A stretch of DNA of 64,000 nt from an uncultured Acidobacteriota bacterium. GTDB taxonomy: Bacteria; Acidobacteriota; UBA6911; RPQK01. The notes under the pieces were generated by a model, which saw nothing but the letters and a program-made list of their open reading frames with translations, ran no database searches and was not told the origin of the DNA. The DNA lies in NCBI GenBank assembly GCA_963744645.1, contig CAVUUN010000010.1, forward strand, positions 122,150 to 186,149, given 5' to 3'. Of the stretch, positions 33,613-63,020 are shown in pieces. The translations under genes and the position numbers were made by a program. Every line of letters begins with the position of its first letter. Position 1 is the first letter of the stretch.

Positions 33613-33704
33613 GGAATCGGGGACACAATACTTAATTCCCAAAGCGTTCACCTGCTCTCCGCAGGTTCACGGGAATTGAGTTTATGTCCCCGATTTCCAA
33701 TCCC
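33613..33704. repeat. Dispersed palindromic element, copy A (~90 bp). Arms are cggggacacaatacttaattccc / gggaattgagtttatgtccccg around a loop holding a second palindrome cctgctctccgcagg.
   Basis: About 90% identical to copy B at 36199-36290. The arms are shared with copy C (48800-48942) and half-copy D (62983-63020). It lies immediately upstream of the hybrid kinase gene. Confidence 0.7.
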
Positions 33705-33706
33705 CG

Positions 33707-36139
33707 GTGGTCGAGTCTGGATCGATCCCGACCCCTGACAACTCCGGCCTTGTCAGTGGTGCAGCGCTGGGGGATAATCGCGCGGTTAGCCAGTTGGGGG
33801 GGCAAGTGGAAGGGGGGGCGCAGCAACTGTCGGTTTTGTCTTCCGAGAAAGCAACATATGAGTCTCGGGAGCCCTCTGCTCACCCGTTCCGGTGGGTGAT
33901 GGTGCTCGCCATTGCCTCCCTGGCGGTGTGCGCTCTCTGCGTGATGGTCTTCATTCCCTCCTCGTATTCGCTCCCTCTCGTCGAAATCCAGAACGTGGCA
34001 ACGGGACCATGGCAGGGTGTAAGTCCTATCTTCAGCTATTACCCCAACGCCAAGATCGAGATCGTTGAGAATGGGCCTGGCCAAGAGGACCAGCCGCACA
34101 AGTTTTTGCGCTGCCGGGTGGCCAAGGCGGACGGGTGGACAGGGTTTGGGATTCTGACCACCGCAAGCGCGGCCGGGGACGCGACCCTTTATCTCCGATG
34201 GCGATGCAGCGGTACCGCTCCCCACATCCAGATCGATTTGCGCGAGCGCCCGCGGAAGCCCGGCGAGCCGTCAGGGGAAGTCTTCTCGGCCGCCGTACCC
34301 TTCGTCTCGAATAAATGGGCGACGACGCCTCTGCCGCTCCGCGGCCTTTCCAGGAATCAGTTCTACCAGCCGGCCGGGATTCACGGCAATGGAGTGCTTG
34401 ATGCCGACCGGGTCGAGCTCATAGCCTTCACCTTGCCGCCCGGCTCGGAAGTGACGATCGACATCGCGGACCTGAGATTCGAGTGGCATAGCTCCAAGTG
34501 GCAGGTGGTCGGAGGCATTCTCGCGGTCGGCTTCCTGGCGATCCTCGTGATGGAGGCGGCACAGCTCGCAATCAGGAGGCGTAAAGCGGAGCGGACGCTG
34601 AGAACCTCGGAGGCCAACTACCTCACGATTTTCAACGCGGTGCGGGAAGGGATATGGGTGCTCGACGCGGAGACCGGGAAGATACAGGACGTGAATCGAA
34701 CCGCTTGTGAGATGCTGGGCCTGGGGCGGGACTCGATGCTCGGTCGGCCCTTCACCGATCTGGCGTTCGATCTCAGCCTCCAGGATTGCCGGCACGCCTT
34801 CGGCAAAAGTGTCGCGACCACCTATCACGAATTCGAGTGCAGGCTTCAGCGACAGAACGGCGAGACGGTCTGGGGAGATCTGCGCACCACTCGAACCGAA
34901 ATCGGTGAGCAGCAGCTGCTTCTGGTCGTGATGCGCGAGATCAGTGACAAGAAAGAGGCTGAACAGGAGCGGCTCCGGTTGGAGCAGCGATTGATGCAGT
35001 CCCAGAAGATGGAAGCACTGGGCAAGCTCGCCGGCGGCATTGCCCACGACTTCAACAATATTCTGACCGGCATCAGCCTGGCTGCCGACATGGCTTTACT
35101 GAAAGGCGGTCCCGATGCGCCGATGGTCCCCGAGATCCGGCAGGTTCGTGAACTGGCCGACCGGGCGACCGGACTGACAAAGCAGATGCTGACCTTCAGT
35201 CGCCGGCAACCGCTCCATCCGGTGCCGCTCCACCTAAACGCCCTAATCCAGGGCTCCTTGTCGATGCTCGTCCGGCTGATCGGCGAAGATATTCGCCTTA
35301 CGTTTCACGCCGACACGGACCGGGATCTCATCCGGGCCGATCAAAGTCAGATCGAGCGGGTGCTGATGAACCTGGCGATCAATTCCCGGGACGCCATGCC
35401 GAAGGGCGGGAATATCACAATCCGAACCTGCACCCAGATTCTGAAAGGCAGGCGCTCTGACCTGGACCTGTCGCCTGGCGAATATGTCGTGCTGGAAGTC
35501 GCGGATACGGGGCAGGGAATAGACGAGGCAATCCGGGAGCGAATCTTCGAACCTTTCTTCACTACCAAGGAATTGGGGAGGGGCACAGGCCTCGGCCTGT
35601 CGACGGTCTACGGAATCGTGACCAAACACAAGGCGGCGATCACGGTCGAGAGCTCACCGGGTTCCGGCTCCAGGTTTCGCCTCTTCTTCCCCTACCTTGT
35701 GGTCGGCGAGGCAAAGGTCCGGGTGCGCGAGGAGGCGAAGCCGTCGGTTCAGGGCGGCAACGAGTTGGTCCTCATTCTGGAGGACGATCCGGACGTTCGC
35801 CAGCTTGTCGAAGCCACCCTGACCAGTTTCGGCTACCAAACGGTATCGGCCGCGTCCGCGATTGAGGCTGAATTGCTTTACCGCGACCGGAGGGATGAGG
35901 TGGCGCTCCTGCTCGCGGATGTTGTCATGCCAGGCGAGAGTGGACCTCAGTTTTACCACCGCATGGTCCGGGAGAACCCGGACCTGAAGGTCCTGTTCAT
36001 GTCCGGGTATGCGGATACGAAGTCCATTTGTACTGATGTCCGTCGCCAGGGATTGCCTCTGATCCAGAAGCCGTTTCAGCTGGCCGATCTGGGCCGGTTG
36101 GTCCGCGAGATTCTCGAAGCGTCGACAGTGCGGGCCTAG
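33707..36139 (+). CDS. Hybrid sensor histidine kinase / response regulator (periplasmic sensor domain, TM, PAS, HisKA, HATPase_c, REC)
   Basis: 810 aa. The PAS domain is [15 protein letters not shown]. The H-box is [17 protein letters not shown]. The N/G boxes are [16 protein letters not shown] and GTGLGLS. The C-terminal receiver is LILEDDPDV...LLADVVMPG...KPF. The true start may be an internal GTG/ATG near 33900. Confidence 0.85.
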
Positions 36140-36198
36140 CCGAGGGGGGAAGCCGGAAAATCGGTGAGGCGGGGGCGACGGCAAGGGAAATCCGGGGC

Positions 36199-36290
36199 GG
36201 GAAATCGGGGACACAATACCTAATTCCCAAAGCGTTTACCTGCTGTCGCAGGTTCACGGGGATTAGGTTTATGTCGCCGATTTCTTCCCC
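36199..36290. repeat. Dispersed palindromic element, copy B
   Basis: gggaaatcggggacacaatacctaattcccaaagcgtttacctgctgtcgcaggttcacggggattaggtttatgtcgccgatttcttcccc lies between the kinase stop and the protease gene start. Confidence 0.7.
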
Positions 36291-36322
36291 GGGGAGTCCG
36301 TCGGGGGCGTTGAGGTCCAACC

Positions 36323-39300
36323 GTGAAGAGAACAACAACAGCCTTCCTGCTCCTACTCGCGTTTTTCCCTGTCAGCGCCCTCGCCGGCACGCCGCCGCAG
36401 GCGGGGTCCAATCGACCTGCAAACCTCCCCTGGGCGACCAGTCCCTGGCGACAGGGCGCGCCTGCGGCCCGACTCGGACCCCAACCCTGGCTGATTGTTC
36501 TGTGTCGTTTTGCAGACGACCCGAGCACGCCCCGTTCTCGCGAGTACTATGAAAGCCTGCTCGGTTCCGAAGCGCCGGGGCTTGACCACTATTGGCGGGA
36601 GGTATCCTACGGCCTGGTCAGCCTGGCCGGAAGTCGAGCGGTTGGATGGTACACGCTGCCTCGTGCGCGTTCCTACTACGTCGGGGCGAACGGGCTTGAC
36701 GGTTACCATGCCTTTCAGGACGCCACCGCGCTTGCCGATCCGGATGTGTACTTCCCCGCTTTTGTCGGCATGAGCCTGGTCTTCAACGGCCTCTTGGGGG
36801 ATCGCGAGCAAGATCGGGCCACGGCTTACGGCGGATCGATCTACACCCGGCTCGACGGTGTGTCGCGGAACTGGGGAGTGACGTACATTCCCGCGGGCAT
36901 CGGCACCTGGGTGTTCCAGCGCGAGGTTTTCAACGTTCATAACGTCTTCGCCCACGAGATGGGGCACGCACTCGGCCTGCCTCATTCATCCGGCCCATAC
37001 GGTTTCAATTACGACAACTTCTGGGACGTGATGAGTTATTGGGGTGCGAACGTCACCGACCCCGATTACGGCATCTTGGGAATCCACACGATCGCTTACC
37101 ACAAGGACATGTTGGGGTGGTTGCCGGAGGAGTCAAGGCACACCGTCGGCGCGGGCAGCCAGTCGAGGATTCGAATCGAAAGGTTGGCTCAACCGGAAGC
37201 CCCTGGGTTCCTTATGGCTAAAGTCCCGATCGGGGACTCGTCCACCCGGTACTACACTTTCGAGTACCGGTACCGAATCGGTTACGACAGCGGACTTCCG
37301 GACGACGGCGTGATTATCCATGACATCGACAGCGAGCGTCACGAAGTGAACATTAACTGGGGTGCCACCGAATGGCACCCCGCCCACATTGTCGATCAGG
37401 ATGGCAACGGGAATACGGGCGATGACGGCGCTGTGTGGAAAACGGATGAGGTTTTCGTGGACCGGGCCAACGGAATCAGCGCGAGGATCGAGGAGATGAG
37501 CTCGGCAGGTGCGTGGCTGACGTTGAACAACAATGCGCTTTTCTTCTCAGACTTCGTTTGCGGTCCGGAGATCGAATCCACCGTCATTCTCCTGAATCCT
37601 TCCGGAGAGTCCGAAACACCGGGCAGTCTGAACGCGAGGCGTGCGGACGGGCAGGCATGGCCGATCAACATGGACGGTCAGCCGGGGGAGCAAGACGGGG
37701 AGGGACGCTTCCGGTTCTCGCTTGCGCCTCGGGGCTGCGCTTTTTACCATCCGGGTTCGGAGAGCGACGCGAGCAGCGGATGGCTGCAAGTGAGCTCCGA
37801 CAGACCTCTGGCCGGCTCGGTACTTTTTGCGAGCGTCCACGGAATGGCTGCGGTCCCGGCGTCGACACTGTCCGTCCGATCACTGCTCCTTCCGGTCATC
37901 CAGGATGCGGGCCTGGGAATCCGGACCGGCCTCGCCCTCTCCAACCCCAATCCGGAAGCTGTTGAAATTGCCCTGCAGCTGCGCACTCAATCCGGGGACC
38001 CGATCGCAAGCCGCTCGTCGACGCTGCATTTGGAGGCAGCCGGCCAGACAGTGCAATATATCGATGAGCTTTTGCCCGGCTTCTCGACGGACACGGGCTT
38101 TACCGGCACGCTCAGCGTGACCTCCCCCCTTCCCTTCGACGGTCTGGCGATCATGAGCTCTCCCGGAGCCTATGCCACCCTCCCCGTCGCATCGCAGACG
38201 GCTGGTCGGCGTCCCGGGCCGCTTGCCGACGTCAGCACAATCGCCGGTCGACCTCTCGAACCAGGCGGCCTGGATGGCGACCGTAACGAAGCTCTCCTGT
38301 CTTCTCCTCGGGATGCAGCGGTCGACGAGGCAGGCAACATTTATGTGGCTGACAGCGGAAACCACACTATTCGCAGGATCGACGCGGTCACCGGGAGGGT
38401 CACAACTTTTGCCGGTCAGACGGGCGTCAGCGGGTCCTCCGACGGGGCAGCCGCTTCAGCGAGATTCAAGACGCCGCGGGCGGTTTGTCTGGACTCGAGT
38501 GGAAACCTGCTCGTGGCCGATTCCCAGAACCACACCATCCGGCGGATCGGTGCGGACGGCGTCGTCTCGACTCTGGCGGGAAAGGCGGGCGAATACGGAT
38601 GGGCCGACGGGAAGGGAGTGGATGCGCGGTTTGATGATCCGTCCGGGATAGCTGTTAGTGGATCTGGCGTCATCTATGTTTCGGACCGGGATAACCACTC
38701 TATCCGCAAGGTCACGCCTGACGGTGTTGTGAGCACATTGGCCGGAACCCCGCGGCGGGCGGGGTACGCGGATGGGCCGGGTCAAAACGCCCGCTTCAGC
38801 CAGCCGTGGAAGATCGCCGTCGATTCCCGGGAGAACGTCTTTGTCGCCGACTATCGCAATGCGCTTGTCCGTAAAGTAGCGTCTGACGGGCAGGTGACGA
38901 CCATCGGCGGAACCTGCAATGTGCCCGGGTACAAGGACGGCGCCCCTTCCAGTGCTCTGTTCAGCTTTCCGTCCGGAATTGCCGTGGACGCTTCCGGGAC
39001 CGTCTTCGTGGCGGATGGATACGTTATCCGACGGGTGGAGCCGGACGGATATGTGACCACGCTGGCCGGTTATCCTGAAGCTCCGACCTCGCCGATTTCC
39101 CCTTGTGGAACGAGCGACGGCGTGGGTAAAGAGGCTCGCTTCGGATACACGTCGTCGATTCAATTCGGACCAGGCGGCACCCTCGTGGTTGCCGACACCT
39201 CCAACCACACGGTCCGCCGTCTGGTCGTCAAAGATAAAGTCGAACGGCTCCATTTCCCCCAGTTCGCCAGTGGAGCCGGGCTCGTTTCAACGCTCGTGCT

Positions 39301-39907
39301 CGCGAACCCTTCTCAGACTCAATCGGCCAACGGACGGATCGAGCTGTTCGACAGCCAGGGGCAGCCGCTGGCGACAACGATCAATGATCAGCCGGCCAAC
39401 CGGGAACTGACCTTTGATGTTCCTCCCCTTGGGATACGTTTGTTTAGAAGCACGAGCGCCGGAGAACGGTCCGTCGGGTCGGCGATCGTAGAGAGCAACT
39501 CGTCGCTGACCGGCACGGTTTTGTTCTCGGGTGTTGCGGGTTTGGCCGGTGTTCCCGCCTCTCGAGCAACCCGACGACTGGCGACTGCGGTCGATTCCGA
39601 CGTGGCGAGGACCGTTGCCACCGGGTTGGCGCTTATGAACCCGAACCCGATTCCAGTAGATGTGACGTTACGGCTTCGAGACATGGCTGGGACGGCTGTC
39701 GCTTCCGCCGTAATTCAGATCCCTGCGAACGGACAACTGGCGCGGTTTCCCCAGGAGCTCTTCGGGGACTTGCCCGCTTTAAAGAAGTTCCAGGGATCAT
39801 TGGAAGCAGAAGCAGCCTCGCCTGTCTGCGGCGTTGGCTTGCGAGTTGTGCCGGGAGAGCTGGCCACCCTCCCGGTGGCTGTTCTCGATTTCTTAGCGGG
39901 CCAGTAA
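36323..39907 (+). CDS. Secreted zinc metalloprotease (M6/immune-inhibitor-A-like HEXXHXXGXXH) fused to an NHL-repeat beta-propeller and C-terminal beta-sandwich domains
   Basis: 1,194 aa. Signal peptide AFLLLLAFFPVSALA. Zinc site VFAHEMGHALGLPH. At least 6 NHL-like repeats (DEAGNIYVADSGNHTIRRID, DSSGNLLVADSQNHTIRRIG, SGSGVIYVSDRDNHSIRKV and others). Confidence 0.8.
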   Translation: MKRTTTAFLLLLAFFPVSALAGTPPQAGSNRPANLPWATSPWRQGAPAARLGPQPWLIVLCRFADDPSTPRSREYYESLLGSEAPGLDHYWREVSYGLVSLAGSRAVGWYTLPRARSYYVGANGLDGYHAFQDATALADPDVYFPAFVGMSLVFNGLLGDREQDRATAYGGSIYTRLDGVSRNWGVTYIPAGIGTWVFQREVFNVHNVFAHEMGHALGLPHSSGPYGFNYDNFWDVMSYWGANVTDPDYGILGIHTIAYHKDMLGWLPEESRHTVGAGSQSRIRIERLAQPEAPGFLMAKVPIGDSSTRYYTFEYRYRIGYDSGLPDDGVIIHDIDSERHEVNINWGATEWHPAHIVDQDGNGNTGDDGAVWKTDEVFVDRANGISARIEEMSSAGAWLTLNNNALFFSDFVCGPEIESTVILLNPSGESETPGSLNARRADGQAWPINMDGQPGEQDGEGRFRFSLAPRGCAFYHPGSESDASSGWLQVSSDRPLAGSVLFASVHGMAAVPASTLSVRSLLLPVIQDAGLGIRTGLALSNPNPEAVEIALQLRTQSGDPIASRSSTLHLEAAGQTVQYIDELLPGFSTDTGFTGTLSVTSPLPFDGLAIMSSPGAYATLPVASQTAGRRPGPLADVSTIAGRPLEPGGLDGDRNEALLSSPRDAAVDEAGNIYVADSGNHTIRRIDAVTGRVTTFAGQTGVSGSSDGAAASARFKTPRAVCLDSSGNLLVADSQNHTIRRIGADGVVSTLAGKAGEYGWADGKGVDARFDDPSGIAVSGSGVIYVSDRDNHSIRKVTPDGVVSTLAGTPRRAGYADGPGQNARFSQPWKIAVDSRENVFVADYRNALVRKVASDGQVTTIGGTCNVPGYKDGAPSSALFSFPSGIAVDASGTVFVADGYVIRRVEPDGYVTTLAGYPEAPTSPISPCGTSDGVGKEARFGYTSSIQFGPGGTLVVADTSNHTVRRLVVKDKVERLHFPQFASGAGLVSTLVLANPSQTQSANGRIELFDSQGQPLATTINDQPANRELTFDVPPLGIRLFRSTSAGERSVGSAIVESNSSLTGTVLFSGVAGLAGVPASRATRRLATAVDSDVARTVATGLALMNPNPIPVDVTLRLRDMAGTAVASAVIQIPANGQLARFPQELFGDLPALKKFQGSLEAEAASPVCGVGLRVVPGELATLPVAVLDFLAGQ

Positions 39908-40729
39908 CGAATCCGCCAGGGCGGACAATTCCGGCGGGGCAACAGGGGCGGGGCTCTGGAGAATCACAACACGGCGGCCGCGGTTCTGGGCTTTGACGCC
40001 CTTGTGCGGGGTGGCCGATAGCCCTGTCACGCTCGCGGCGGCAAATTCGGGGGTCTGGTATTCGGCGAGCAGCGCTTCGACCAGACCTGAAGCGGTACGG
40101 TACGAAGCAAGCCAACCCCGCTCGAAACCCTTCCGTTGGAGTGGTGCGACCCAGGGACGGACGCCAAGACCGATTGGACCGCAAATCGAGACCTCGGTGC
40201 CGGGGACTGGATGGGCCGCGCGAATGGGGCTGAAGACGGACTCCAACCCGCATTCCCCGACGAGCCGGCCGGCGATTCGCCTCGTCAAGTCGCGAACCGC
40301 ATTGGACTGGTTGGCCATAGGATCGTCGTTTCTGCACGCCAGGTAGTACTTCCCCCTCGCCAGAAGGATTTCGCCAGCCGTCATGCTGGCCCGACAGCCG
40401 GGCATGAGATCCGCTTCCGAACCGGGTCGGCGCATGTAACTGTAGAGGGCGGCGGCCGCCGCGCGATCCCTCATCTCGAACAGTTCGACGGTCATCTGGC
40501 TGGCGCCTTGGGAGTACCGGCGAACGGAGAGGGCGAGGGAGCCGTACTCGAGAAAGATGTCCGCACCCCCGTCCATATACGTGTACAGCCCCGAGGAGGT
40601 GTAAGACTCGGGATCGCCGATATCCGCAAAGGGACCCAGCTCGCCCCCGGCCGGCAGCGGGCTTGACGAACCGCAGCCCGTGAGCACCAGGAGGCAGACG
40701 ACCGAAGAGGCGGCGAACCGGCAAATCAT
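39893..40729 (-). CDS. Hypothetical lipoprotein
   Basis: Start at MICRFAASSVVCLLVLTGCGSS (lipobox LTGC), internal to ORF 39893..40891. Protein-like composition. The 3' end overlaps the protease 3' end by 15 nt. A competing alternate-frame 363-aa ORF is Arg/Pro-rich junk. Confidence 0.5.
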   Translation of the reverse strand: MICRFAASSVVCLLVLTGCGSSSPLPAGGELGPFADIGDPESYTSSGLYTYMDGGADIFLEYGSLALSVRRYSQGASQMTVELFEMRDRAAAAALYSYMRRPGSEADLMPGCRASMTAGEILLARGKYYLACRNDDPMANQSNAVRDLTRRIAGRLVGECGLESVFSPIRAAHPVPGTEVSICGPIGLGVRPWVAPLQRKGFERGWLASYRTASGLVEALLAEYQTPEFAAASVTGLSATPHKGVKAQNRGRRVVILQSPAPVAPPELSALADSLLAR

Positions 40730-41760: not shown

Positions 41761-42299
41761 AGGCTCCCTCCTGCTGCCTGAGTCGCGGCCTTAGGGGCAC
41801 GATCCAGCCAGCCGCCGATCACCCGTATACCGCCGAGTGTGAAAAGCCCGAAGCCGGCCGCTCCAGCGGGCATGAACTGGGCCGCCAGGCGGCTCTCATT
41901 GAAACCAGCACCGAGAGCGAAAGCGAGGCCCGCCCCGCATACGAATCCGGCAATGCCGAACAGGGGCGAAGTCAACGCCGTGCCGATTCTTGCCCTCCGT
42001 CGAGACAGGAGAGAGGCGGCCGCGATCCCGAGGGCGAGTGCCGACGCGGGCCAGGCTGCCAGCGCGGTCACAACCCGGCCTCCGACAAGGAATGCTACGG
42101 CTGCAGCGGCTCCGGCTGCCAGCCCCGCGAAGACACCCGTTCGGACGCTTCTTGTGAGAAGCCCCATCGAGGTGCCGATCGCCGCACACGCAGCCACCGT
42201 TTGCGGAAGAAAAGAGCCGAACAAATCACCGACGGCCCACCCTACCACTCCACTCAAGAGGCCGGCGAAAGACCAAACGAGAAACGATGAACGACGCAT
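41757..42299 (-). CDS. Hypothetical polytopic membrane protein
   Basis: Start at MRRSSFLVWSFAGLLSG. The listed N-terminal extension (MRSAQRAVRSLQCAVRSLQ...) is a translation of the CTGCGCACTGC simple repeat and is not protein. About 5 Ala/Gly-rich TM helices. Confidence 0.45.
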   Translation of the reverse strand: MRRSSFLVWSFAGLLSGVVGWAVGDLFGSFLPQTVAACAAIGTSMGLLTRSVRTGVFAGLAAGAAAAVAFLVGGRVVTALAAWPASALALGIAAASLLSRRRARIGTALTSPLFGIAGFVCGAGLAFALGAGFNESRLAAQFMPAGAAGFGLFTLGGIRVIGGWLDRAPKAATQAAGGSL

Positions 42300-42315
42300 G
42301 GAAGCTCCCGGGACG

Positions 42316-42490
42316 ACTGCGCACTGCGCGCTGCGCACTGCAGACTGCGCACTGACGACTGACGACTGACCACTGACGACTAAGAACTGCAGACTGCGCA
42401 CTGCACACTGCAGACTACGCACTGCACGCTGCGCACTACGCACTGCGCACTGCCTGCTGCCACTGCCCCTGCCCGCTGCCCGCTGACCCT
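42316..42490. repeat. Simple-repeat tract (CTGCGCACTGC, GACTGACGACT, CTGCCCG units), same family as 18290-18408
   Basis: gactgcgcactgcgcgctgcgcactgcagactgcgcactgacgactgacgactgaccactgacgactaagaactgcagactgcgcactgc...ctgcccctgcccgctgcccgctgacc. It shares the strings gaactgcgcactgcgcgctgc and actgacgactgacgac with the 18.3-kb tract. Confidence 0.7.
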
Positions 42491-46408: not shown

Positions 46409-46487
46409 CCCGCCCAATGTAATCGCGTGGCGAGATCGAGGCAAGAAGAGAACAGCGGGAGAGGCGGCTGGAGACGCGGCCAATTGC

Positions 46488-46640
46488 TTACGGTGAGAAT
46501 CCGCGCACTCTCGCAAAAAACGCTCCGTTTGCGGTTCTGTTCACCTCGACGACCCTTTGCAGACAAGCGCGGGCGTCGAACAGGAAGAACCGCAAACGGA
46601 GCGCTTTTTCAGCGAAGTGCGCGGATTCTCACCGTAAGCA
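46488..46640. repeat. ~150-bp near-perfect palindrome (two nested ~22- and ~32-bp stem pairs)
   Basis: ttacggtgagaatccgcgcac (46489-) is the exact reverse complement of gtgcgcggattctcaccgtaa (-46638). The inner pair is cgcaaaaaacgctccgtttgcggttctgttc / gaacaggaagaaccgcaaacggagcgctttttc. Confidence 0.75.
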
Positions 46641-46673
46641 ATCACGTTGGAGTCAGATGATTGTGACTGTCTG

Positions 46674-47228
46674 CTAGAACGTCAGCAGTATTCCCCCGCT
46701 GACCTCCATCAGATTGAAGTTCTGGCGGTTCAAGTCGGGCGGCAAAGCAAATACTTCGATTCCGTCCGGAATCGCGTAGTAACGGACATCGAAGCGGACA
46801 CCCACAGGACCCGCGATGTTCCTGATCTTCAAGCCGCCTCCGGCATTCCAGGTCCAGGCGCTGCGAATCTTGAAGCTGGTGTCAGTTTGACCGATGATGC
46901 TGCCGAAGCCGACGGTTCCAAACGGAACAAACCCGCCCACGGGGAGCTGGACCAGGAAGTTGCCGTTCAGAAGATGGATGTTCTCGTCGAAGGTTCCCAA
47001 CCGGTCCTGCAGTCCGGCCGCGGCCGTATAGCTGAATTCGGTCCCCAGGACCGCCAGAAACGAATGGCCGACCCTGAAACCCATCGCTACGCCCCGATCG
47101 AAGTCCGCCTGGTTCAGTTCCGTGCCAGGGTCATAGACGCCGAGGAAGCCCTCTATCTCGGTTTGAGCGAGGGCGTTTGAGCAAATCGCGACACAGGTTA
47201 GCAGTAACACGAGGCCAAAACGGTTCAT
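46674..47228 (-). CDS. Outer-membrane beta-barrel protein (OmpW/OmpA-like small barrel)
   Basis: 184 aa. Signal peptide LVLLLTCVAICSNALA. Alternating hydrophobic beta-strand pattern. C-terminal aromatic residue (…GGILLTF). Confidence 0.65.
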   Translation of the reverse strand: MNRFGLVLLLTCVAICSNALAQTEIEGFLGVYDPGTELNQADFDRGVAMGFRVGHSFLAVLGTEFSYTAAAGLQDRLGTFDENIHLLNGNFLVQLPVGGFVPFGTVGFGSIIGQTDTSFKIRSAWTWNAGGGLKIRNIAGPVGVRFDVRYYAIPDGIEVFALPPDLNRQNFNLMEVSGGILLTF

Positions 47229-47364
47229 GAGTCATTCCTCCACAATGTGCGGCGCTTTCTTCAATGATATCAAAGACTTCGGCCCGGTTCGGAGTGGGAA
47301 TCTTCGGAATCCGGCCAATCTTTGCGCTTTTTCCGAGGAGGCGGGCCAGCATACTATTCCTTCA

Positions 47365-48718
47365 ATGAAGCTCAACCGCCAGGTCCTTGGGAACACGATC
47401 ATTGCGGCTCTCGGCGGCCTCCTGTTCGGATTCGACACGGCCGTCATCTCGGGCACGACGGAGGCTCTTCAGCAGGTCTACCGACTGAGCAGCTTCGGGC
47501 TCGGTTTCACCGTCGCCAGTGCGCTGATCGGAACGATCGTCGGAGCAATCGCCGCGGGCCGTCCGGCCGATCGCTTCGGCCGCCGCAAGACCTTGTTTGC
47601 CATTGCGATCCTTTACTTCGTCTCGGCGGTCGGAACCGCGCTCGCATGGGATTGGTCCTCTTTCCTCTTCTTTCGCTTCATCGGGGGGATCGGTGTGGGG
47701 GGCGCTTCGGTCGTTTCCCCGATGTACATCGCCGAGATTTCTCCTGCTTACTACCGTGGCCGAATGGTCGCGATAACGCAGTTCAACATCGTTCTCGGAA
47801 TACTCCTGGCCTTCTTTCTCCAACTACCTGATCGTCCAGCTGGACGTCGGCCCGACGGCGTGGCGATGGATGTTCGGCGTGGAGGCTTTCCCGGCGGCCG
47901 CGTTCTTCTTTCTCTTGTTCCTCACTCCGGGCAGCCCCAGGTGGCTTGTCTCCCAGGGGCGAGTGGAGGCAGCACGGGCAGTGCTGTCCCGCCTCGGTAC
48001 CGACACGGGGAGCGTTGAGACGGAGATACGCGAAATCCAGGCTTCGATGGATCTGGAGCACCACACTCTGACCGAGCCCTTCTACCAACGGAAATACCTG
48101 ACCCCGATTCTGCTCGCCGTCGCGATCGCAATGTTCAACCAGCTCTCGGGCATCAACGCATTGATGTACTACGCCCCGTACATCTTTAAAATGGCCGGCG
48201 CCGGTCAGCATTCGGCACTGCTGCAGACGGTTGCCATCGGCGGCACGAACCTTCTTTTCACCATGGCCGCGCTGCTGGTCATCGATCATTTCGGGCGACG
48301 GAAACTCATGCTCGTCGGCTCGATCGGCTACATCCTGAGCCTCGGCACCACGGCCTGGGCCTTCTACACTTTCGGGACGAATTTCGACGCGACCGGCGGG
48401 ACAATCGTCCTGATCAGTCTGCTGGTGTTCATCGCCTCGCACGCCTTTGGCCAGGGAGCGGTGATCTGGGTTTTTATCAGCGAGATCTTCCCCAATCGGG
48501 TGCGCGCGCGCGGGCAGGCGCTCGGGAGCTTCACGCACTGGGTCATGGCCGCCGCGATCTCCTGGACATTCCCCATGATCGCCGGATGGTCGGGTGGGCA
48601 CACGTTCGCATTCTATGCCGCGATGATGGTGCTCCAGCTTCTTTGGGTGCTGTTTGTCATGCCGGAGACGAAGGGCGTCCCCTTGGAACAGATCCAGAAG
48701 AAACTGGGGATCGAATGA
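47365..48718 (+). CDS. MFS sugar porter (xylose/arabinose-H+ symporter-like), one 1-bp frame break near 47818
   Basis: The start is MKLNRQVLG. GFDTAVISG, GRRKTLF and PESPRWL-like (PGSPRWLV) motifs are present. ORFs 47227..48018 and 47870..48718 join as ...LAFF(S)NYLIVQLDVGPTAWRWMFGVEAFPAA.... Confidence 0.85.
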
Positions 48719-48745
48719 GGACGGTTTTGGCGCGAGTTTCGCGGG

Positions 48746-48942
48746 AGGTTCGGGGGGAGCGTTCGGGGAGTTTGGGGGAGTTTCGGGGAGTTCGGGGAGT
48801 TTCGGGGACACAAAACTTAATTCCTTTGCTTACGGGGAGCCCGCGGTAAGCGGGATGGGAATTAAGTATTATGTCCCCGAAACTGCCACGGGGAGGCCGC
48901 GGTAACGGGATGGGAATTAAGTATTATGTCCCCGAAACTGCC
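48746..48942. repeat. Dispersed palindromic element, copy C (a full copy plus a partial second copy), preceded by about 6 degenerate tandem copies of its first 10 nt (gagtttcgggga)
   Basis: gtttcggggacacaaaacttaattcc tttgcttacggggagcccgcggtaagcgggat gggaattaagtattatgtccccgaaactgcc is then followed by ...ccgcggtaacgggatgggaattaagtattatgtccccgaaactgcc. It lies directly upstream of the ggt start. Confidence 0.7.
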
Positions 48943-48957: not shown

Positions 48958-50650
48958 ATGAAATGCAGAATGGCGATTGGACTTTGTGCGGCCCTGTTCC
49001 TGGCCGTTTCCCCGCTTTTGGCGGCGACCCAACCGGTGCGGGCGCGGCGCGGAATGGTGGTTTCGCAGAACGAGATCGCTTCACGGGTCGGCGCGAAGGT
49101 CCTCCAAGAGGGTGGGAATGCCGTGGATGCGGCGGTTGCGACCGCCTTTGCATTGGCGGTCACCCATCCGACGGCTGGAAATATAGGCGGCGGGGGTTTT
49201 CTGCTGTTCAGGCCCGCGCAGGGTGAACCGGCTGCTTTCGATTTCCGGGAGACGGCGCCGAAAGCGGCCACCGCTCGCATGTTTCTGCGCAACGGGCAAT
49301 ACGACGCCGCTTTGCACCACGACAGCTATTTGTCGATTGGGGTTCCGGGGACCGTCGCCGGTTTGCACCTCGCGTGGAGCCGGAAGGGACGATTGCCGTG
49401 GAAGCGTCTTCTGGCTCCCGCAATCGATCTCGCCAACAACGGGTTCACAGTCTCGCCCGGGCTCAGCCGGTCCCTCAGGTCGGTACTCCCCGAGATGAGG
49501 AAATATCCGGCTTCCTTCCGGCAGTTTTCCCGGGACGGCGTGCCGTACGAACCTGGGGACACTCTTCGTCAGCCGGACCTCGCCCGGACGCTGCAAAGGA
49601 TTGCCGAGAAAGGTCCGGCGGGATTCTACGAGGGCGAGACGGCCAGCTTGATCGTCAAGGAAATGGCGGCTGGGGGCGGGTTGATTACGGCCGATGATCT
49701 GAAGGCGTACAGGGCGGTAGAAAGGACTGCGTTGCGAGGCAGTTACCGGGGGACGGAAGTCATTGCGATGCCGCCCCCGACTTCGGGCGGAACCGTCTTG
49801 ATCGAGATGCTGAATGTGCTCGAGGGGTACGATCTCGGCGAGCTCGGGTTTGGGTCGGCGGCTAGCCTGCATCTGATGGCGGAAAGCATGCGCAGGGCTT
49901 ACGCCGATCGGGCTCAATACCTCGGAGACCCGGACTTCAACCGAGAGATGCCCCTCCCGAAGCTCGTTTCAAAGGAGTACGCGGCCGCGCTGCGCAGGAC
50001 GATAAACAGGAACGCAGCCTCGCGCTCCACCCCCGCTTGCTCGGGAATGGCCTTCGGACGAGAGCGAGGAAACAACCCATCTGTCCGTCGTCGATCGTGA
50101 CCGCTCGGCGGTGGCTCTGACCTTCACGCTGGAGGGCGGATACGGGTCGCGAATTGTGGTTCCGGGTGCCGGTTTCCTGCTGAATAACGAGATGGGGGAC
50201 TTCAACGCGGGCCCGGGTCTCACCGATGAGACGGGTCTCGTCGGGACTCCGCCCAATCTCGCCGCGCCAGGCAAGCGAATGCTCTCGAGCATGACGCCGA
50301 CGATCCTCGCCCGGGACGGCAAGGTCCTCATGGTAACCGGGAGTCCGGGAGGCCGCACGATCATCAACACCGTGCTGCAGACGATCGTGAACGTCGTCGA
50401 CTTCGGCATGAACGTGCAGGAGGCGGTCGATGCTCCCCGCATTCACCATCAGTGGCTCCCGGATCGGATTTCCTTCGAACGCAACGGGGTCTCACCGGAT
50501 ACCCTTTCGATTCTCAAATCCCTCGGACACAGTCTGATCCCGGTTCGTTCTCAAGGGGTGGTTCAGGCAATCGTCTACGACGCCGAGGCAGACCTCCTGG
50601 AGGCCGGCTGCGACCGGCGTGACCCGGATGGTGGAGCGGCAGGCTGGTAG
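48958..50650 (+). CDS. ggt: Gamma-glutamyltranspeptidase, one 1-bp frame break at a C5 run near 50038
   Basis: Start at MKCRMAIGLCAALFLAVSPLLAA (signal peptide). GGT signature blocks include PTAGNIGGGGF and the autoprocessing region TTHLSVVDRDRSAVALTFTLEGGYGSRIVVPGAGFLLNNEMGDF. Removing one C gives ...NRNAASRSTPLAREWPSDESEETTHLSVVD..., colinear with E. coli GGT as I recall it. Confidence 0.85.
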
Positions 50651-54783: not shown

Positions 54784-54953
54784 AGCCCAGTGCGGCTCAC
54801 GTTTGAACCCGCTTGCTCCGTGGAAAGGCCGCGTGCGCCGCTCTCCAGAGGCGCGCATCGGGCGGCTGGCTCCCGGTCGCCGACATCCCTGCCCCCTTAG
54901 CTTTCGCTCGCTGTGCTAAATTCGAAGCAAGTGAACGGGAGCCCGCGACAGCT

Positions 54954-58159: not shown

Positions 58160-58234
58160 CGTTGCTCCCCGGTTTGAACACGAAGCCCGGAGTGCGGACA
58201 ATAGAAAGAATCACACCTGAAGGATGGAGGATCT

Positions 58235-58810
58235 ATGAAGATTTTGAGTATCGTGGGAGTCGCGCTCGTTCTCTCCTCTGTGCTGCTTGCGGCCGATGAG
58301 CCGGTCAAATTGAGCGTTGGCGAAAAAGCGCCCTCATTTACGGCCAAGGACGCCGACGGGAATACCTGGAACTCGATGGACGCCGTCGGAAAACGGACCC
58401 TGGTCGTCTATTTCTACCCAGCGGCCTTCACTGGCGGCTGCACCAAGCAGGCCTGCAATTACCGGGACCACATTTCCGAGTTCAAGGGGATGGATGCACA
58501 GGTCGTCGCGATCAGCGGAGATGAACCTGAAACCCTGAAGATGTTCCGCAAGACGCACGGCCTGGAGTTCACGTTGCTCTCGGACACGGACGGCTCCGTC
58601 GCACGCAAGTTCGGTGTCCCGGTGAAGGAGGGCGGGTCGATCAAGCAAACGGTTGACGGCAAGGAAGTAACCCTGAACCGAGGGGTGACCGCCTCTCGGT
58701 GGACGTTCGTGATCGACAAGGAGGGGAAAATCGCCTACGTCAACTCGCAGGTCGATGCGGCGAATGACGGTCAGGCCGTCCTCGCCACGCTCAAGGAATT
58801 GAAGAAGTAG
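58235..58810 (+). CDS. Exported peroxiredoxin (AhpC/TSA - Bcp/PrxQ-like thiol peroxidase)
   Basis: 191 aa. Signal peptide. The active site is VVYFYPAAFTGGCTKQAC (peroxidatic Cys in the T/S-x-x-C motif). Confidence 0.85.
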   Translation: MKILSIVGVALVLSSVLLAADEPVKLSVGEKAPSFTAKDADGNTWNSMDAVGKRTLVVYFYPAAFTGGCTKQACNYRDHISEFKGMDAQVVAISGDEPETLKMFRKTHGLEFTLLSDTDGSVARKFGVPVKEGGSIKQTVDGKEVTLNRGVTASRWTFVIDKEGKIAYVNSQVDAANDGQAVLATLKELKK

Positions 58811-58814
58811 GACG

Positions 58815-58960
58815 CGAGGGGGGCAAGAGACGCAAAGGATTCACGCAAGAGACGCAAGAGGCGCAAAAGAAACGCTAAAGAAGCATTTCTTTAGCGTTTC
58901 TTTTGCGCCCCTTGCGTCTCTTGCGTGAGTCCCTTGCGTCTCTCGCTCCCTCTTGCGCCC
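58815..58960. terminator. Very long near-perfect palindrome / bidirectional terminator between convergent genes, built from GCAAGAGACGCAA-type repeats
   Basis: gcaagagacgcaagaggcgcaaaagaaacgctaaagaagcatttctttagcgtttcttttgcgccccttgcgtctcttgcg is centred near 58885. An A/T-rich centre, U-tract-like runs on both strands. Confidence 0.6.
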
Positions 58961-58963
58961 CGA

Positions 58964-59719
58964 CTACCGGAAGCGGTCGAACTCTTCGGGCAGAATCAGG
59001 AAGAGGGTGTCGGGATCGACGGACTGCAGATCCCAGGTAACCTGGAATTGCGAAAGGACTTCGATCAGCCGGGCGATGTTTCCGGGCTCATCCCGATTGC
59101 CGGCTCCTGGCTTCACACTTCCCGTTCGAGGATCGAAGTAGAGGCGGCCGACCATTTCGAGCACGGCGGGATTCGTCGCCAGTTCCTGGCTGGCCGTCAT
59201 CTCCCGATAAAGAGCGCCTGGTTCGGAGACTTCGTCGGTCAGCAGCGGGAGGACCAGCTCAGTCCGATTCCGGTGCGCGCGGTAAAGGGTGAACGGACCC
59301 GCCAGGAGGTGACGGAAGTAACTTCGGCCGGTATTGGCAAGAACCCATCGCGAACGCTCGCCCGGCTGTCGGCGCCCCTGCTTGTCGGCGGGGCAGAGCT
59401 GGTTGAAATAAAAAAGCGAGAGCCAGGTCCAGAGGCCGACGTCCCGTCCAATACCTTGAAACTCAGGCCGATCCAGCCGCTCGTTCAGGTGCCGGGCCAG
59501 CTCGAATCTGTTTGGAAAATTGCGCTGTTCGAGCTCGACTGCCGGTTTCACTGGTGAGGTGGCGGTTGGATCCTCCAGCAGAAAGAAAGGAAAAGGACTG
59601 GGAACGCCCGTGCCGAGCGAGTCGAGGAATCGCGACCACTGCTCGATTCCGGTGCTGTTGAAACGGCGCAGCATGATCGGGGCGTAATCCGATACGTTCG
59701 TGGTCTGTGCCTCATTCAT
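58964..59719 (-). CDS. Hypothetical protein (third gene of the GHKL-ATPase operon)
   Basis: Start at MNEAQTTNVSDYAPIMLRRF, internal to ORF 58964..59824. 251 aa. No recognised domain. It overlaps the upstream gene by 8 nt. Confidence 0.5.
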   Translation of the reverse strand: MNEAQTTNVSDYAPIMLRRFNSTGIEQWSRFLDSLGTGVPSPFPFFLLEDPTATSPVKPAVELEQRNFPNRFELARHLNERLDRPEFQGIGRDVGLWTWLSLFYFNQLCPADKQGRRQPGERSRWVLANTGRSYFRHLLAGPFTLYRAHRNRTELVLPLLTDEVSEPGALYREMTASQELATNPAVLEMVGRLYFDPRTGSVKPGAGNRDEPGNIARLIEVLSQFQVTWDLQSVDPDTLFLILPEEFDRFR

Positions 59720-60476
59720 GGCTGAACCATGTCTTCTCGAACAGGTCGAGGAGCCCGGCCTTGCGGCTGAAGGACGCTGCCGCCTCGTCAATCCAGCGAT
59801 CCAGCTCGGATTGCTCACCTCCATCCGGCGGTTTTCCCAGACCGGGGAGCCCGCTTGCGAAGCGCAGCCAGCGGGAGCGCCAGTCTTCCAGATTGTCGGT
59901 GTCTAAGTGTTTATCAACGCAGAGAATGCGCGTCAGGATGGCCCGAAGAGCGGCCGGGTAGACAAGGACCGCAAACAACGGATCCCGGGCCAGTTCCTGC
60001 CAATCCGCGAGCCGGGCATTGACCAGCAGCAGTACCTGATCGGTGTCGAATTCCAGGCGAAAGACTTCTCCGGCGAGGTCCGGCGACGGTGCGACCGGGA
60101 GGAGCGGGATGCGGTCATCCTCCGAGTCACCCTCCGGGGCCGGCCGCAACTGGTCGATGTCGGCGAGAAGAAGACCTTTGGGGTCGGACGCGCTAACGAT
60201 TTTCACCCGGAAGAGCAGTCCTTCCGGAAAGCCGAAGTCGACCAGGCTGCGATCGGACGGAGGATGGATCGCGCTCACGTGACCGAAAGAAAACCGCATC
60301 GATTTCGACTGTCGGTACGCTTCAACGTAGACGTCGGCATCTGCGGGCAGCGAGTAATCGCCCAGTCGAATCCAGGCGTCGAAGGTCGGAACGGCCCCTT
60401 CGGTTCGCAACGAAATTGCGACGTCCTTGCGGTCGAGGCGCTGGCGGCCCGTGAAGTTAACCGTTCGAAGAGACAT
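59712..60476 (-). CDS. Hypothetical protein (second gene of the GHKL-ATPase operon)
   Basis: 254 aa. Acidic (D/E-rich middle section). No recognised domain. It overlaps the upstream ATPase gene by 20 nt. Confidence 0.5.
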   Translation of the reverse strand: MSLRTVNFTGRQRLDRKDVAISLRTEGAVPTFDAWIRLGDYSLPADADVYVEAYRQSKSMRFSFGHVSAIHPPSDRSLVDFGFPEGLLFRVKIVSASDPKGLLLADIDQLRPAPEGDSEDDRIPLLPVAPSPDLAGEVFRLEFDTDQVLLLVNARLADWQELARDPLFAVLVYPAALRAILTRILCVDKHLDTDNLEDWRSRWLRFASGLPGLGKPPDGGEQSELDRWIDEAAASFSRKAGLLDLFEKTWFSHE

Positions 60477-62385
60477 TGCGCGCCTCCTCTGACCCGGCGG
60501 TATCCGAGTCCAATTGGGTCACCAGGAGCCTCAAGTCCCGTCGCCTGTCAAACCCCTCCACCTGAAGCCGGAACCGGTCGCTTGTGACGCGAACATGCAG
60601 CTTGTTTCCGCTCGAGGTGAGGATCTGTGCTCCCTTCGCCTGCAGCTCTATCGGTGGGGCGCCGAGTTCAAAGTCAGTCGGTCGCCATCTTGTGAACGGG
60701 TTGCCTGCGCGGACGTCGTAGGCGACTGACAGCGCGATCACGGTGGGCAAATCCAACTCCTCTTTGCTCTTGCGCAGCACGAAACCCCGCTGAGTCCTTT
60801 CAATCTGGAATCCCTGCGGATATGAAGAGAGCAGGCGGATCTGATCGGGTGGCTGCCCGGTGGCGTGCCGGTCCTCCGCCCCAAACCAGCCATGGCTCTC
60901 GTCACGGGCAGGGAGTGAAAACAGGTCAGTCAGAAGCGTGTGATCGAGTTGCTGATCCGAGCAACAGAGCATCCGGTTGATTTGATGGACTGCCTGGATC
61001 ACGAAGTCGAGGTCGACCGCCCCCGATTCATACTTTCCACGGAACTTGGAGCTTTGCTTCTGCCACTGGGTGTGCGCAGGGTTCTCGGAGTCGCCCAGGA
61101 AGCCCGCGATCGGAGGGTGTTCGGCCACCACCAGGGAGCGGACGCCATGAGTCCGCGGAGCACGAACATCCGGAATGGTGAGTCCTTCCCGGATGAAGAG
61201 CGGGCGGCCGGTTTTTTCGCTCGGGTCGCGTTGCATGAAGACGTCAAAAAAGGAGGCGCGCGGGCGGGCGGCCTTTTCCCGGACCGTCACGGGCACACGC
61301 AAAGCAATTTGCTCCCCTGCTTCATATCGTCCGCGAAGAGCGTTTCTCACCGGTTGTGGGAGACGGTCTGCCGACCAGCGCCATGGCTGTTCAGGAGCCG
61401 TCATCTGGAGCACGGTGAGTCGGTCAGCGTCGACGGTCGTTGCCCAACGGGCCAGCTGCAAAATGGGTGCGAGGTCTGGATCCACGGCATCGGGGAGCGC
61501 CGGCGCGTTCAGCATTTCGGCGTCCAAAACCGTGCTGCGTTCGGGACTCTGCAGGCAAACCTGCAACTGGCCCTGTAGAATGGGCCAGAAGTAGTGGCGC
61601 AGGATGGATCGAACGAGCACGTCCGGAGCCAGGTCGTCACAGTACCACGGGATAACGAGCGAAAGTCCCGGCTCCCGGTGCCGCTTCAGATCGAACAGTT
61701 CCTCGAAGCGCTTCATCCAGAGCGGGTCCTCGACAGCTCGAACCAGGCCGTCATGCGTGGTTTGCGGAGGCAGCCCGAACCAGCCGTCCGGAGAGTGGTA
61801 GACGCCGTCGAAGAAATGCGAGCGGAGGGCGGCCTGCCCAAGCAGGATCCGGCGCTTATCATCGGCGCGCACGGTCATGGCAAAAAAGGTGCGGATTCGG
61901 CTGGATCGTGTGAAGACCTGTTTTCCGACACCCCACCGTCCTCGCTCATGCTTGGCCCGGTCCGACCTGCCGTCGGCACGGTAGAAGTTGAAGAAGTTGT
62001 TGCTGACGCCGGGGAGCGGCTGCCATTGACTGGTATCGCCGGTCAGGCCGGTCGTGCCGAAGTCCTCAAAGACCAGAAAGGGGCAGGAATCCCGGGGCGA
62101 GGGTACGTCGCGAAGGCCGTTGCTTTCGGCTTGGATGTGTGGCCACAACCCCTCCATGAAGGGGTTCATATCCCTCGGTGCGGCGGCCTGCGACTCACCA
62201 GACAGGAAGATTCGAACGGTGACCGGGCAGCCGGGCTGTCCTGCGTCCAGGGAGTTCTGAATGCCCTCCCGGATGAGCGCCTCCCCGGGATTAGCGATCG
62301 CCTCCGCGGCAAAAAATTCGCCGTGAATCGGCTCGCGGATCTTGTCTCCGGCTTTCACTCGGTTGAAATGCCAGCGGAAGCCCAT
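60457..62385 (-). CDS. MutL/MORC-like GHKL (Bergerat-fold) ATPase domain protein, 642 aa, with a long uncharacterised C-terminal region
   Basis: The N-terminal N-box is FFAAEAIANPGEALIREGIQNSLDAGQPGCPVTVRIF (compare MutL ...ELVENSLDAGAT.I.I...). The G1-like region is LVFEDFGTTGLTGD. The G2-like region is ERGRWGVGKQV. There is no HisKA domain, so this is not a histidine kinase. Confidence 0.55.
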   Translation of the reverse strand: MGFRWHFNRVKAGDKIREPIHGEFFAAEAIANPGEALIREGIQNSLDAGQPGCPVTVRIFLSGESQAAAPRDMNPFMEGLWPHIQAESNGLRDVPSPRDSCPFLVFEDFGTTGLTGDTSQWQPLPGVSNNFFNFYRADGRSDRAKHERGRWGVGKQVFTRSSRIRTFFAMTVRADDKRRILLGQAALRSHFFDGVYHSPDGWFGLPPQTTHDGLVRAVEDPLWMKRFEELFDLKRHREPGLSLVIPWYCDDLAPDVLVRSILRHYFWPILQGQLQVCLQSPERSTVLDAEMLNAPALPDAVDPDLAPILQLARWATTVDADRLTVLQMTAPEQPWRWSADRLPQPVRNALRGRYEAGEQIALRVPVTVREKAARPRASFFDVFMQRDPSEKTGRPLFIREGLTIPDVRAPRTHGVRSLVVAEHPPIAGFLGDSENPAHTQWQKQSSKFRGKYESGAVDLDFVIQAVHQINRMLCCSDQQLDHTLLTDLFSLPARDESHGWFGAEDRHATGQPPDQIRLLSSYPQGFQIERTQRGFVLRKSKEELDLPTVIALSVAYDVRAGNPFTRWRPTDFELGAPPIELQAKGAQILTSSGNKLHVRVTSDRFRLQVEGFDRRRDLRLLVTQLDSDTAGSEEARNVSSNG

Positions 62386-62982
62386 GCTGAATCACCCGTT
62401 CTATTGTCGCGGAGAGTGTAACCCGAAACCGGTGATGCAAAACACGAAACAACAAAGGAAGGGGCAGAGGGGCAGGGAGGGAGTCGCCAGACATCCGTCC
62501 AAGCGACCAGGCTCCGGTTAGCAGTGCGGCGGCAAAAGGAATCTCCCAAAGCCATCGGACCCCTTCTGGCGCCGCACTGCTCCCTGAAAATAGTTGTCCC
62601 TTGAACAATGAGGAGCCGGCAGCGAGATTGTCAGGCCAGTGCTGCGAGGGTGTTGGATAAGCGGCCTCGGACAGATGGCGCTCATGACAATACACAAGAA
62701 AGTAAAGCGCGTGCGCACGAGGACGTCGATGAGTTGCATGTGAACCGGCAAGACTCGGTTCCGGTCGACTCTTGCCAGGGCGGGCGTGGGGAAAACGGGT
62801 CAGTAAAAGGCTGTTTACAGGCAAGTCAATATTTTCAACACCCTCGCTGCGTGCGCGGCTCTGACAAGGCAGCCCTGCGTGTGACAAGGCTACTCGACTG
62901 TCTCTCCGCTTTTCCATCGATCGCGGGTGCCCGAAAAGGACGAAAGACTCCAAACAGGAGCAGTTGCCCCGGAGGAGATGGA

Positions 62983-63020
62983 GGGAATTAAGTCTTACGT
63001 CCCCGAAATTCCCCCCGAAA
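62983..63020. repeat. Dispersed palindromic element, half-copy D (right arm only)
   Basis: gggaattaagtcttacgtccccgaaattccccccgaaattgcc matches the right arm of the copy C sequence gggaattaagtattatgtccccgaaactgcc. Confidence 0.55.

Follow-up and report, generated by a model that had tools for sequence, protein, structure and literature searches.

Introduction

What are the roughly 90-bp palindromes that recur between the genes of an uncultured Acidobacteriota bacterium, and how did they come to be there? The question arises from a stretch of 64,000 nucleotides (GenBank assembly GCA_963744645.1, contig CAVUUN010000010.1, positions 122,150 to 186,149; hereafter the window) that contains four such elements, A to D, all at the places given by an earlier, sequence-only reading. 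That reading proposed either a mobile repeat resembling miniature inverted-repeat transposable elements (MITEs) or repetitive extragenic palindromes (REPs) that homes to promoter regions, or a structured cis-regulatory RNA or operator. We now assign a probability of about 0.85 to a more specific answer, namely that the palindromes are non-autonomous derivatives of TIRtrons. TIRtrons are cassettes of about 0.8 kb in which a Y1/HUH transposase gene, the TIRYT (Group 1 of the REP-associated tyrosine transposases, or RAYTs; TnpA_Y1 subclass 2.1), lies between terminal inverted repeats (TIRs) of about 27 bp. On this reading the palindromes are REPIN-like doublets of TIRtron ends, moved by a TIRYT encoded elsewhere.

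Palindrome Arms Are Identical to the Ends of Y1 Transposase Cassettes

An exact scan for the arm 22-mer GGAATTARGTNTTRYGTCCCCG in a collection of one genome per species (596 Gb) returned at least 77 stretches, compared with about 2 expected by chance from the information content of the pattern. At least 10 bacterial phyla are represented among the matches listed. The listed hosts belong to Acidobacteriota, Pseudomonadota (Alpha- and Gammaproteobacteria), Desulfobacterota, Omnitrophota, Elusimicrobiota, Saccharibacteria, Clostridia, Planctomycetota (Planctomycetales), Riflebacteria, Desantisbacteria, and others. At least 31 of the stretches come from a single Acidobacteriota metagenome-assembled genome (MAG; CAYQYP01), in which they form doublets of about 85 nt of exactly the same type as element C. 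Where two arms are closely set, their GGGG ends face outward in every case, and the spacer between them measures 30–35 nt in the MAG and 1–68 nt outside it.

The arm consensus is AATTAAGTATnGTGTCCCCGGAAYT, with its outer end at GGGGACAC. Among 179 distinct arms from non-MAG loci, positions 3–27 are conserved (AATTAAGTATtGTGTCCCCGgAAtT); the last five of these positions lie outside the search criterion, indicating that the repeat is about 27 bp long. The AT-rich TTAATT core, which had been singled out as unusual for this genome, is thereby accounted for as part of a transposase-end sequence that is conserved whatever the G+C content of the host. Searching the full-text literature with arm substrings yielded one unrelated PCR-probe paper and nothing else, and exact-protein look-ups of two window proteins gave no match.

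At several of these loci the arms accompany a gene. In locus L011, a 220-aa open reading frame (ORF) is bracketed by two left arms and one right arm, and in L045 a homologous ORF has one arm on each side. L017 has an arm beyond the 3′ end of a third homologue, and L048 a doublet ahead of a fourth; the four loci represent four different taxa. The arm-flanked protein matches Pfam Y1_Tnp (PF01797) with E = 2e-10 and 5e-12. Among NCBIfam models, the REP-associated tyrosine transposase (REP_Tyr_transpos) comes nearest, with a score below the model cut-off, and the sole relative of the protein in the PDB is 4ER8, E. coli TnpA_REP, with the HUH and Y motifs aligned. The proteins are about 220–235 aa long and display the motifs NHVH, WE, and Y[IV]E[LM]NP (DNHVH, LWEGRF, and RYIEMNP in L011; PNHVH, VWQGRF, and RYVELNP in L045), together with a C-terminal extension that includes a WSS motif. 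As judged from these motifs, and not from the hidden Markov models (HMMs) of the authors who defined the classes, the proteins fit subclass 2.1/RAYT Group 1.

An independent test of the association used 80 metagenomic loci with homologues 44–64% identical to the L011 protein. Arms (at most 5 mismatches to the 22-mer) were found at 51 of the 80 loci, and on both sides of the gene at 23, whereas about 0.05 would be expected by chance in the flanks scanned. At these loci, the upstream arm typically ends 33–35 nt before the ATG, and the downstream arm starts 2–69 nt past the matched coding region. Within the 33–35-nt gap between arm and ATG, the TIRYT loci (L094, L119, L131, L132, L142, L147, and others) conserve a sigma-70-like promoter. 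By our reading of the consensus, the −35 box (TTGAC) shares bases with the inner end of the left arm, and about 6 nt separate the −10 box from the ATG. This arrangement suggests that the TIRYT mRNA is nearly leaderless, and that the enzyme probably regulates its own gene through end binding. The dispersed copies in the window are without this TIRtron promoter.

Taken as sequences, the arms in the window are identical to TIRtron ends of many phyla. Few TIRYT homologues are plasmid-borne: there are 23 such records, none of which reaches 45% identity. Two of them, from Rhodospirillum rubrum and Iodobacter, were checked; they have other TIRs, of the GGGGTCAG kind, and are uninformative on the TIR variant of the window. 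The different TIRs of these plasmid homologues imply that the window sequence is one clade-specific variant within a superfamily.

Doublet Architecture and Pattern of Conservation

The 24-nt arm pattern (at most 3 mismatches) matches the window six times, compared with no match in 100 dinucleotide-preserving shuffles. An arm-based HMM recovers eight arms (two in A, two in B, three in C, and one in D), with no other match in the 64 kb. All eight start with GGGGACAC or GGGGACAT, which conform to the outer motif GGGGWSAS, with the one exception of the right arm of B, in which a single G-to-C substitution gives GGCGACAT. When folded as single strands, A, B, and C give long hairpins of −33.7, −31.5, and −31.7 kcal/mol, respectively (z = −8.8, −7.6, and −8.7 versus shuffles); for the solo arm of D and the tandem right arms of C, the fold is no more stable than that of shuffled sequences (z = 0.7 and 0.0). 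The elements have a REPIN-like architecture, with two ends joined by a 30–35-nt spacer into hairpins of about 85 nt, and occur also as solo arms, as half-element tandem duplications, and with stuttered termini.

We aligned 35 doublets, 3 from the window and 32 from the MAG, whose loci hold 43 doublets with 30–35-nt spacers in all. The 32 MAG doublets match C in arm types and spacer length. Across the alignment, the arms are conserved to about 100%, and the spacers have drifted to roughly half identity at near-constant length, with a modest bias toward lengthening the hairpin (mean z = −0.82, p = 0.001). Twelve of the 25 stem pairs are invariant. Two-sided changes fall almost entirely in the four outermost tail pairs, where A...T and G...C subfamilies occur side by side; one sequence alone departs from this, at a single inner pair. 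Because the core of the stem is invariant, covariation, which the sequence-only reading had put forward as a check on a structured RNA, is uninformative. The pattern fits a constraint on protein recognition of each arm and provides no specific support for RNA structure. The possibility that a single arm folds as a small REP-like hairpin, with the GGAATT inner end pairing to the AATTCC tail, was also considered and rejected: the 179 arms show no covariation between the two, with pairing at 3.65 of 6 positions compared with 3.64 in shuffled pairings.

The other regulatory signals that we looked for gave negative results. A gathering scan of the whole window against Rfam and a permissive scan of the C region produced no match, only weak plant-miRNA hairpin noise. 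A terminator scan identified no intrinsic terminator (hairpin plus T-run) at any element, the tails being GAAAC/GAAAT or GATTTC, and no promoter consensus was found inside the window elements. The orientation of the better-pairing strand (G·T over C·A) relative to transcription is split 11:6, which is not significant. Among the 23 MAG loci that rough gene calls allowed us to classify, 10 lie between co-directional, 8 between convergent, and 5 between divergent genes, a distribution that does not bear out homing to promoter regions. In the window itself, a position immediately 5′ of genes proved not to be a specific feature: all four elements occupy spacers between co-directional genes, and each is equally 3′ of one gene and 5′ of the next. 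The proposal of a structured cis-regulatory RNA or operator thus receives no support from Rfam, from the flanking genes, which are unrelated, from relatives in which the element is absent before the same genes, or from strand orientation.

Turnover between Related Genomes

Orthologues of the kinase and of the ggt gene that follows C place the window in Acidobacteriota and also supplied genomes for comparison; the nearest named ggt homologues come from Vicinamibacterales or Acidobacteria. In a genome with 98% identity (ERZ25039545 contig_55342), A, B, and C are present almost base for base. In L161, where the kinase is 85% identical, both flanks of B align with 81% nucleotide identity, and a block of 136–145 nt (36155–36299), comprising the B hairpin and its reiterated left tails, is absent from the spacer between the kinase and NHL genes. 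In L162 and L163 (ggt 78–79% identical; one of the two is the element-rich MAG), the transporter–ggt spacer is 35–43 nt long and has no element, compared with 239 nt in the window. These "empty sites" of C are replaced spacers, not clean excisions; at L162 2961–3000 and L163 2966–3000, a 9-nt unit, AACAGGATT, is repeated up to the ggt start codon in 3 and 2 copies, respectively. The MAG also has no element next to its kinase orthologue. This pattern of presence and absence indicates that copies are gained or lost at genus-level divergence and are stable within species.

A and B, moreover, stand at the borders of two larger blocks, 24088–33945 (about 9.8 kb) and 36141–40053 (about 3.9 kb, with the NHL protein). 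Both blocks are present in the window and absent from the syntenic MAG contig CAYQYP010000401, and the hairpins in this way mark synteny breakpoints.

The ends were inspected for target-site duplications (TSDs) in 33 copies, and no consistent TSD was found. A direct repeat of at least 6 nt occurs near the ends of 4 of the 33; at least two of these four copies have other copies of the element as neighbors (a tandem array in L051 and a cluster in L077), and one of the four repeats falls in the reiterated tail of C. In the array at L051 4195–4539 (MAG contig CAYQYP010000001), two complete doublets and their linker stand in tandem with a 106-nt period and are followed by a third doublet, an arrangement like that of bacterial interspersed mosaic elements (BIMEs). 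Of the suggested MITE/REP-like mobile repeat, the mobile part is borne out, in that the arms are ends of a Y1 cassette and B and C are missing from the orthologous spacers of relatives; the TSD result argues against a classical MITE.

Proposed Mechanism and Relation to Known Systems

We propose that a TIRYT encoded elsewhere in the genome recognizes the arms and copies or moves the doublets in trans. By analogy to the TnpA of IS200/IS605 insertion sequences and to E. coli TnpA_REP, its substrate would be single-stranded DNA with the two arms paired to each other. The arms would remain constant because only copies that the enzyme can recognize are propagated, and any effect on neighboring genes, such as an mRNA hairpin, would be incidental.

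RAYT-like genes flanked by long inverted repeats were named TIRYTs, and the cassettes TIRtrons, by Di Nocera, De Gregorio, and Rocco (2013, PMC3733652). In their account, many TIRYT repeats have the motif GGGGWSAS in common (also quoted in PMC6006769), and in some species the repeats make up moderately abundant families of singles, dimers, and clusters. Acidobacterial TIRYTs are placed in a distinct group, and examples of TIRtrons are Stenotrophomonas maltophilia K279a ORFs 1152 and 4509 and Koribacter versatilis ORF1552. The cassettes described here resemble theirs in having a Y1 gene between long inverted repeats that are not themselves palindromic, in the outer GGGGWSAS (GGGGACAC/GGGGACAT in the window), in the dispersal of TIRs as singles, dimers, and clusters, and in having Acidobacteria among their hosts. 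They differ in that a TIR core of 25–27 nt is common to at least 10 phyla, whereas the accessible text of PMC3733652 has a shared 8-nt motif; in that same text we found no description of a doublet of two arm types with a 30–35-nt spacer or of reiterated termini.

According to Quentin et al. (2018, PMC6006769), most TIRYTs fall in TnpA_Y1 subclass 2.1, which corresponds to Bertels' RAYT Group 1 and is characterized by the motifs NHVH, W[EQ], and YIELNP; the proteins have a median length of 238 aa and a tail at the C terminus that resembles a helix-turn-helix. More horizontal transfer has been suggested for Group 1 than for Groups 2 and 3 (Bertels et al. 2017, PMC5581495). Our arm-flanked proteins agree with this class in their motifs, their length, their C-terminal WSS extension, and their wide and patchy taxonomic distribution. 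In contrast to the surveys of the class, the ends here form a multi-copy hairpin family, numbering 4 loci in the 64-kb window and at least 31 in one MAG.

REPIN–RAYT systems are reportedly known from Pseudomonas fluorescens SBW25 and from Enterobacteria through the work of Bertels and Rainey in 2011. As in REPINs, the repeated unit here consists of two inverted repeats and a spacer in one long hairpin (43 doublets in the MAG loci and 3 in the window). The copies are likewise intergenic and free of TSDs, and their arms are conserved more strongly than their spacers. In both cases the enzyme is presumed to be a Y1/HUH protein related to IS200 TnpA, and its gene itself lies between the repeats. 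The clusters and half-element tandems recall E. coli BIMEs. Unlike the canonical REPs and REPINs of RAYT Groups 2 and 3, however, the arms have no GTAG or GTGG at either foot (the criterion, a 5′ GT[AG]G, is from PMC6006769). Single arms are not hairpins, as REPs are, and the transposase, a member of a different RAYT group, falls short of the NCBIfam REP_Tyr_transpos cut-off. REPs are also reported to be specific to their own tnpA_REP gene, whereas the arm sequence here is common to several phyla. With IS200/IS605 elements (IS608, ISDra2) the system has in common the HUH/Y1 core (Pfam Y1_Tnp), the absence of a TSD, and, by analogy, a probable single-strand mechanism. The ends of those elements are short subterminal hairpins that differ between left and right, and not 27-bp inverted repeats as here; the TIRYT protein is longer and has a Y...NP motif and a C-terminal domain.

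Alternative Explanations

Several points weigh against non-autonomous TIRtron derivatives as the answer. A tblastn search found no TIRYT or Y1_Tnp gene in the 64-kb window, and none was recovered from about 250 kb of related MAG loci; we infer action in trans in this genome. We know of no TIRYT for which transposition or cleavage activity has been demonstrated. A and B, with their deviant tail and right-arm indel, may be decaying, and C may have been deleted in relatives instead of gained here. High-copy doublets would also be atypical of the group, since no REP-like sequences are reported for subclass 2.1 (PMC6006769) and flanking 16-mers occur only at low copy number in Group 1 (PMC5581495). 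The elements might instead be a fossil population, that is, doublets derived from TIRYT ends whose cognate transposase has been lost or inactivated, inert relics kept by drift or by host uses such as mRNA hairpins. The missing gene would suit such a population, as would the indel and substitutions in the arms of A and B and the identity of A, B, and C between two 98%-identical genomes, which speaks against recent movement. Yet almost no differences separate the arms of the 32 MAG doublets from one another or from those of C, while their spacers have diverged to about 50%, a combination hard to obtain from neutral decay. In addition, none of the three checkable window insertions is present in the MAG, pointing to activity after the lineages split, and the sequence at hand covers a small part of either genome. 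We therefore regard a fossil population as unlikely.

Explanations that dispense with a Y1 transposase fare worse. A structured cis-regulatory RNA (a leader, attenuator, or stabilizer) selected for its effect on the adjacent gene would make sense of the very stable hairpins, of spacers that tend to extend them, and of the position of the four window copies between co-directional genes, where they could be co-transcribed. It is nevertheless very improbable: the elements match no Rfam family and adjoin unrelated genes, they are missing before the same ggt and NHL genes in relatives, and 8 of the 23 MAG loci lie between convergent genes with an 11:6 split of strands. There is, moreover, no U-tract terminator, the invariant core gives no covariation support, and in other phyla the same arms flank a transposase gene. 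The palindromic sequence with its conserved half-sites is also reminiscent of a regulon-wide operator for a host transcription factor, and where the left arm of the TIRtron abuts the sigma-70-like −35 box it is probably a protein-binding site. We give this idea next to no credence, however, as half-sites spaced 1–68 nt apart between taxa and 30–35 nt here are incompatible with a dimeric factor bound to one helix face, the dispersed copies contain no consensus promoter, and the arms are consistently linked to no gene other than that of the Y1 transposase. Scarcely more believable is a classical MITE, an internally deleted DDE-type insertion sequence moved by cut-and-paste with a TSD, even though inverted repeats surround a short non-coding interior, the copies are intergenic and differ between genomes, and a G-rich 9-mer (GGGGAAGCC/GGGGAGTCC) flanks the inserted block at B. 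That 9-mer resembles the element's own reiterated tail and so is not an independent target, the full-length partner has a Y1/HUH and not a DDE gene, and the 33 copies share no consistent TSD.

Reiterated Termini

The repeats have a further peculiarity at the outer edges of their arms. Immediately beyond 42 of 165 arms from non-MAG loci (25%), the terminal 9-mer (CCCGGAAYT-like) is repeated, compared with 3 of 165 in a distant control window. The repeated unit is the last 9–15 nt of the TIR, and the repetition is often symmetric about the doublet; the unit differs by lineage, and the habit is family-wide (examples are L007, L018, L024, L039, L054, L083, L100, L109, L155, and L156). In the window, this "stutter" occurs before C, at B (36155–36204), and at D (63007–63020). 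The empty site of B (GGGAAGTCATCGGGG) resembles the tail of the element plus the start of an arm. The stutter may result from target preference, repeated cleavage and rejoining, or slippage. It may represent scars of the TIRYT cleavage-and-rejoining site and, if this is true, would offer a direct handle on the TIRYT reaction.

Implications

For annotation, hairpins of this kind are best masked as transposase-end repeats and not pursued as riboswitches or operators, and TIRtrons and their derivatives can conveniently be probed for across phyla with the 22-mer. Surveys have treated Group 1/subclass 2.1 as having no or few repeats, and here its ends are amplified as REPIN-like doublets. Tentatively, a Group 1 RAYT/TIRYT might sustain REPIN-like high-copy hairpins in Vicinamibacteria-like Acidobacteriota, with a site of about 27 nt near-frozen over at least 10 phyla while the enzyme stands at about 45% identity, although we consider this reading doubtful. 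The copy number, the fixed doublet architecture, the cross-phylum constancy of the end of about 27 nt, and the stuttered termini are mildly new; the general view of how such systems work is unchanged. The near-invariance of the end, the promoter placed over the left end, and the stuttered termini are starting points for TIRYT biochemistry.

Layout of the Elements in the Window

The coordinates of the elements and their arms are collected in Table 1. Most details of the sequence-only reading hold, some with adjustments. A is the palindrome described, although it extends slightly further than stated; A and B are 88–89% identical, in line with an estimate of about 90%, and the loop palindromes are present. 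The array ahead of C is indeed tandem, but where about six reiterations had been counted its period is 10, with 7.2 copies. What had been called a partial copy of C is specifically a 55-nt tandem duplication of spacer plus right arm, spanning 48832–48942, and Tandem Repeats Finder confirmed both this duplication and the period-10 array. The half-copy D is more exactly a solo arm, after which its tail is repeated once. A "GHKL operon" beside D was not confirmed by Pfam on either strand.

Table 1. Positions in the window of elements A to D, their arms, and associated tandem repeats
Feature	Position	Strand	Details
Arms of A	33617-33641, 33671-33693		HMM
Arms of B	36205-36229, 36258-36279		HMM
Arms of the C region	48799-48826, 48856-48883, 48911-48938		HMM
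Arm of D	62982-63009		HMM
Element A, TIR doublet/hairpin	33606-33704		31-nt spacer with its own CCTGC/GCAGG stem; tails GGGATTGGGAAT/ATTTCCAATCCC
Element B with reiterated left tails	36155-36299		hairpin core 36193-36291
Tandem "stutter" of arm terminus (GAGTTTCGGG)	48734-48808		period 10, 7.2 copies; leads into left arm of C
Element C, full doublet	48795-48887		arms of ACACAAAAC type (48799-48826) and ACATAATAC type (48856-48883)
Tandem duplicate of right half of C, 55 nt	48888-48942	+	partial spacer plus right arm 48911-48938
Element D, solo arm with one reiteration of its own tail (CCCCGAAATTCCCCCCGAAATT)	62982-63020	+	

The arms of A and B deviate from the others in their tail (GATTTC), in an indel in the right arm, and in substitutions. 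A lies between a PKD-domain gene that ends at 33511 and a hybrid histidine kinase gene. Going by the gene as called in a 99%-identical relative, the kinase starts near 33899, about 195 nt past A; between A and this start is a promoter-like site (33750–33778). A DUF5658 ORF on the minus strand (62995–63732) runs with its 3′ end into D. Near C, the sugar transporter gene (47227–48718) and ggt (48958–50650) are each split by a frameshift in the window and are intact in ERZ25039545 contig_55342 (450 and 563 aa), so that the split versions are either pseudogenes or assembly errors. The window has no tRNA or tmRNA genes.

Other Repeats

At least five other large intergenic palindromes in the window are unrelated to the TIRYT arms (3258–3459, 13257–13465, 13492–13615, 46483–46642, and 58819–58950). 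The family of 13257–13465 has copies in MAG loci L034, L077, and L031; that of 46483–46642 has a copy in MAG locus L159, and that of 3258–3459 a copy in L161. The lineage is rich in several dispersed hairpin repeat families. The window also contains a direct duplication of about 430 nt with 94–98% identity, whose copies lie 1.95 kb apart (10739–11173 and 12694–13124), and two arrays of 7-nt units (ACTGCGC/ACTGACG) at 18294–18408 and 42316–42469 that are partly inverted relative to each other.

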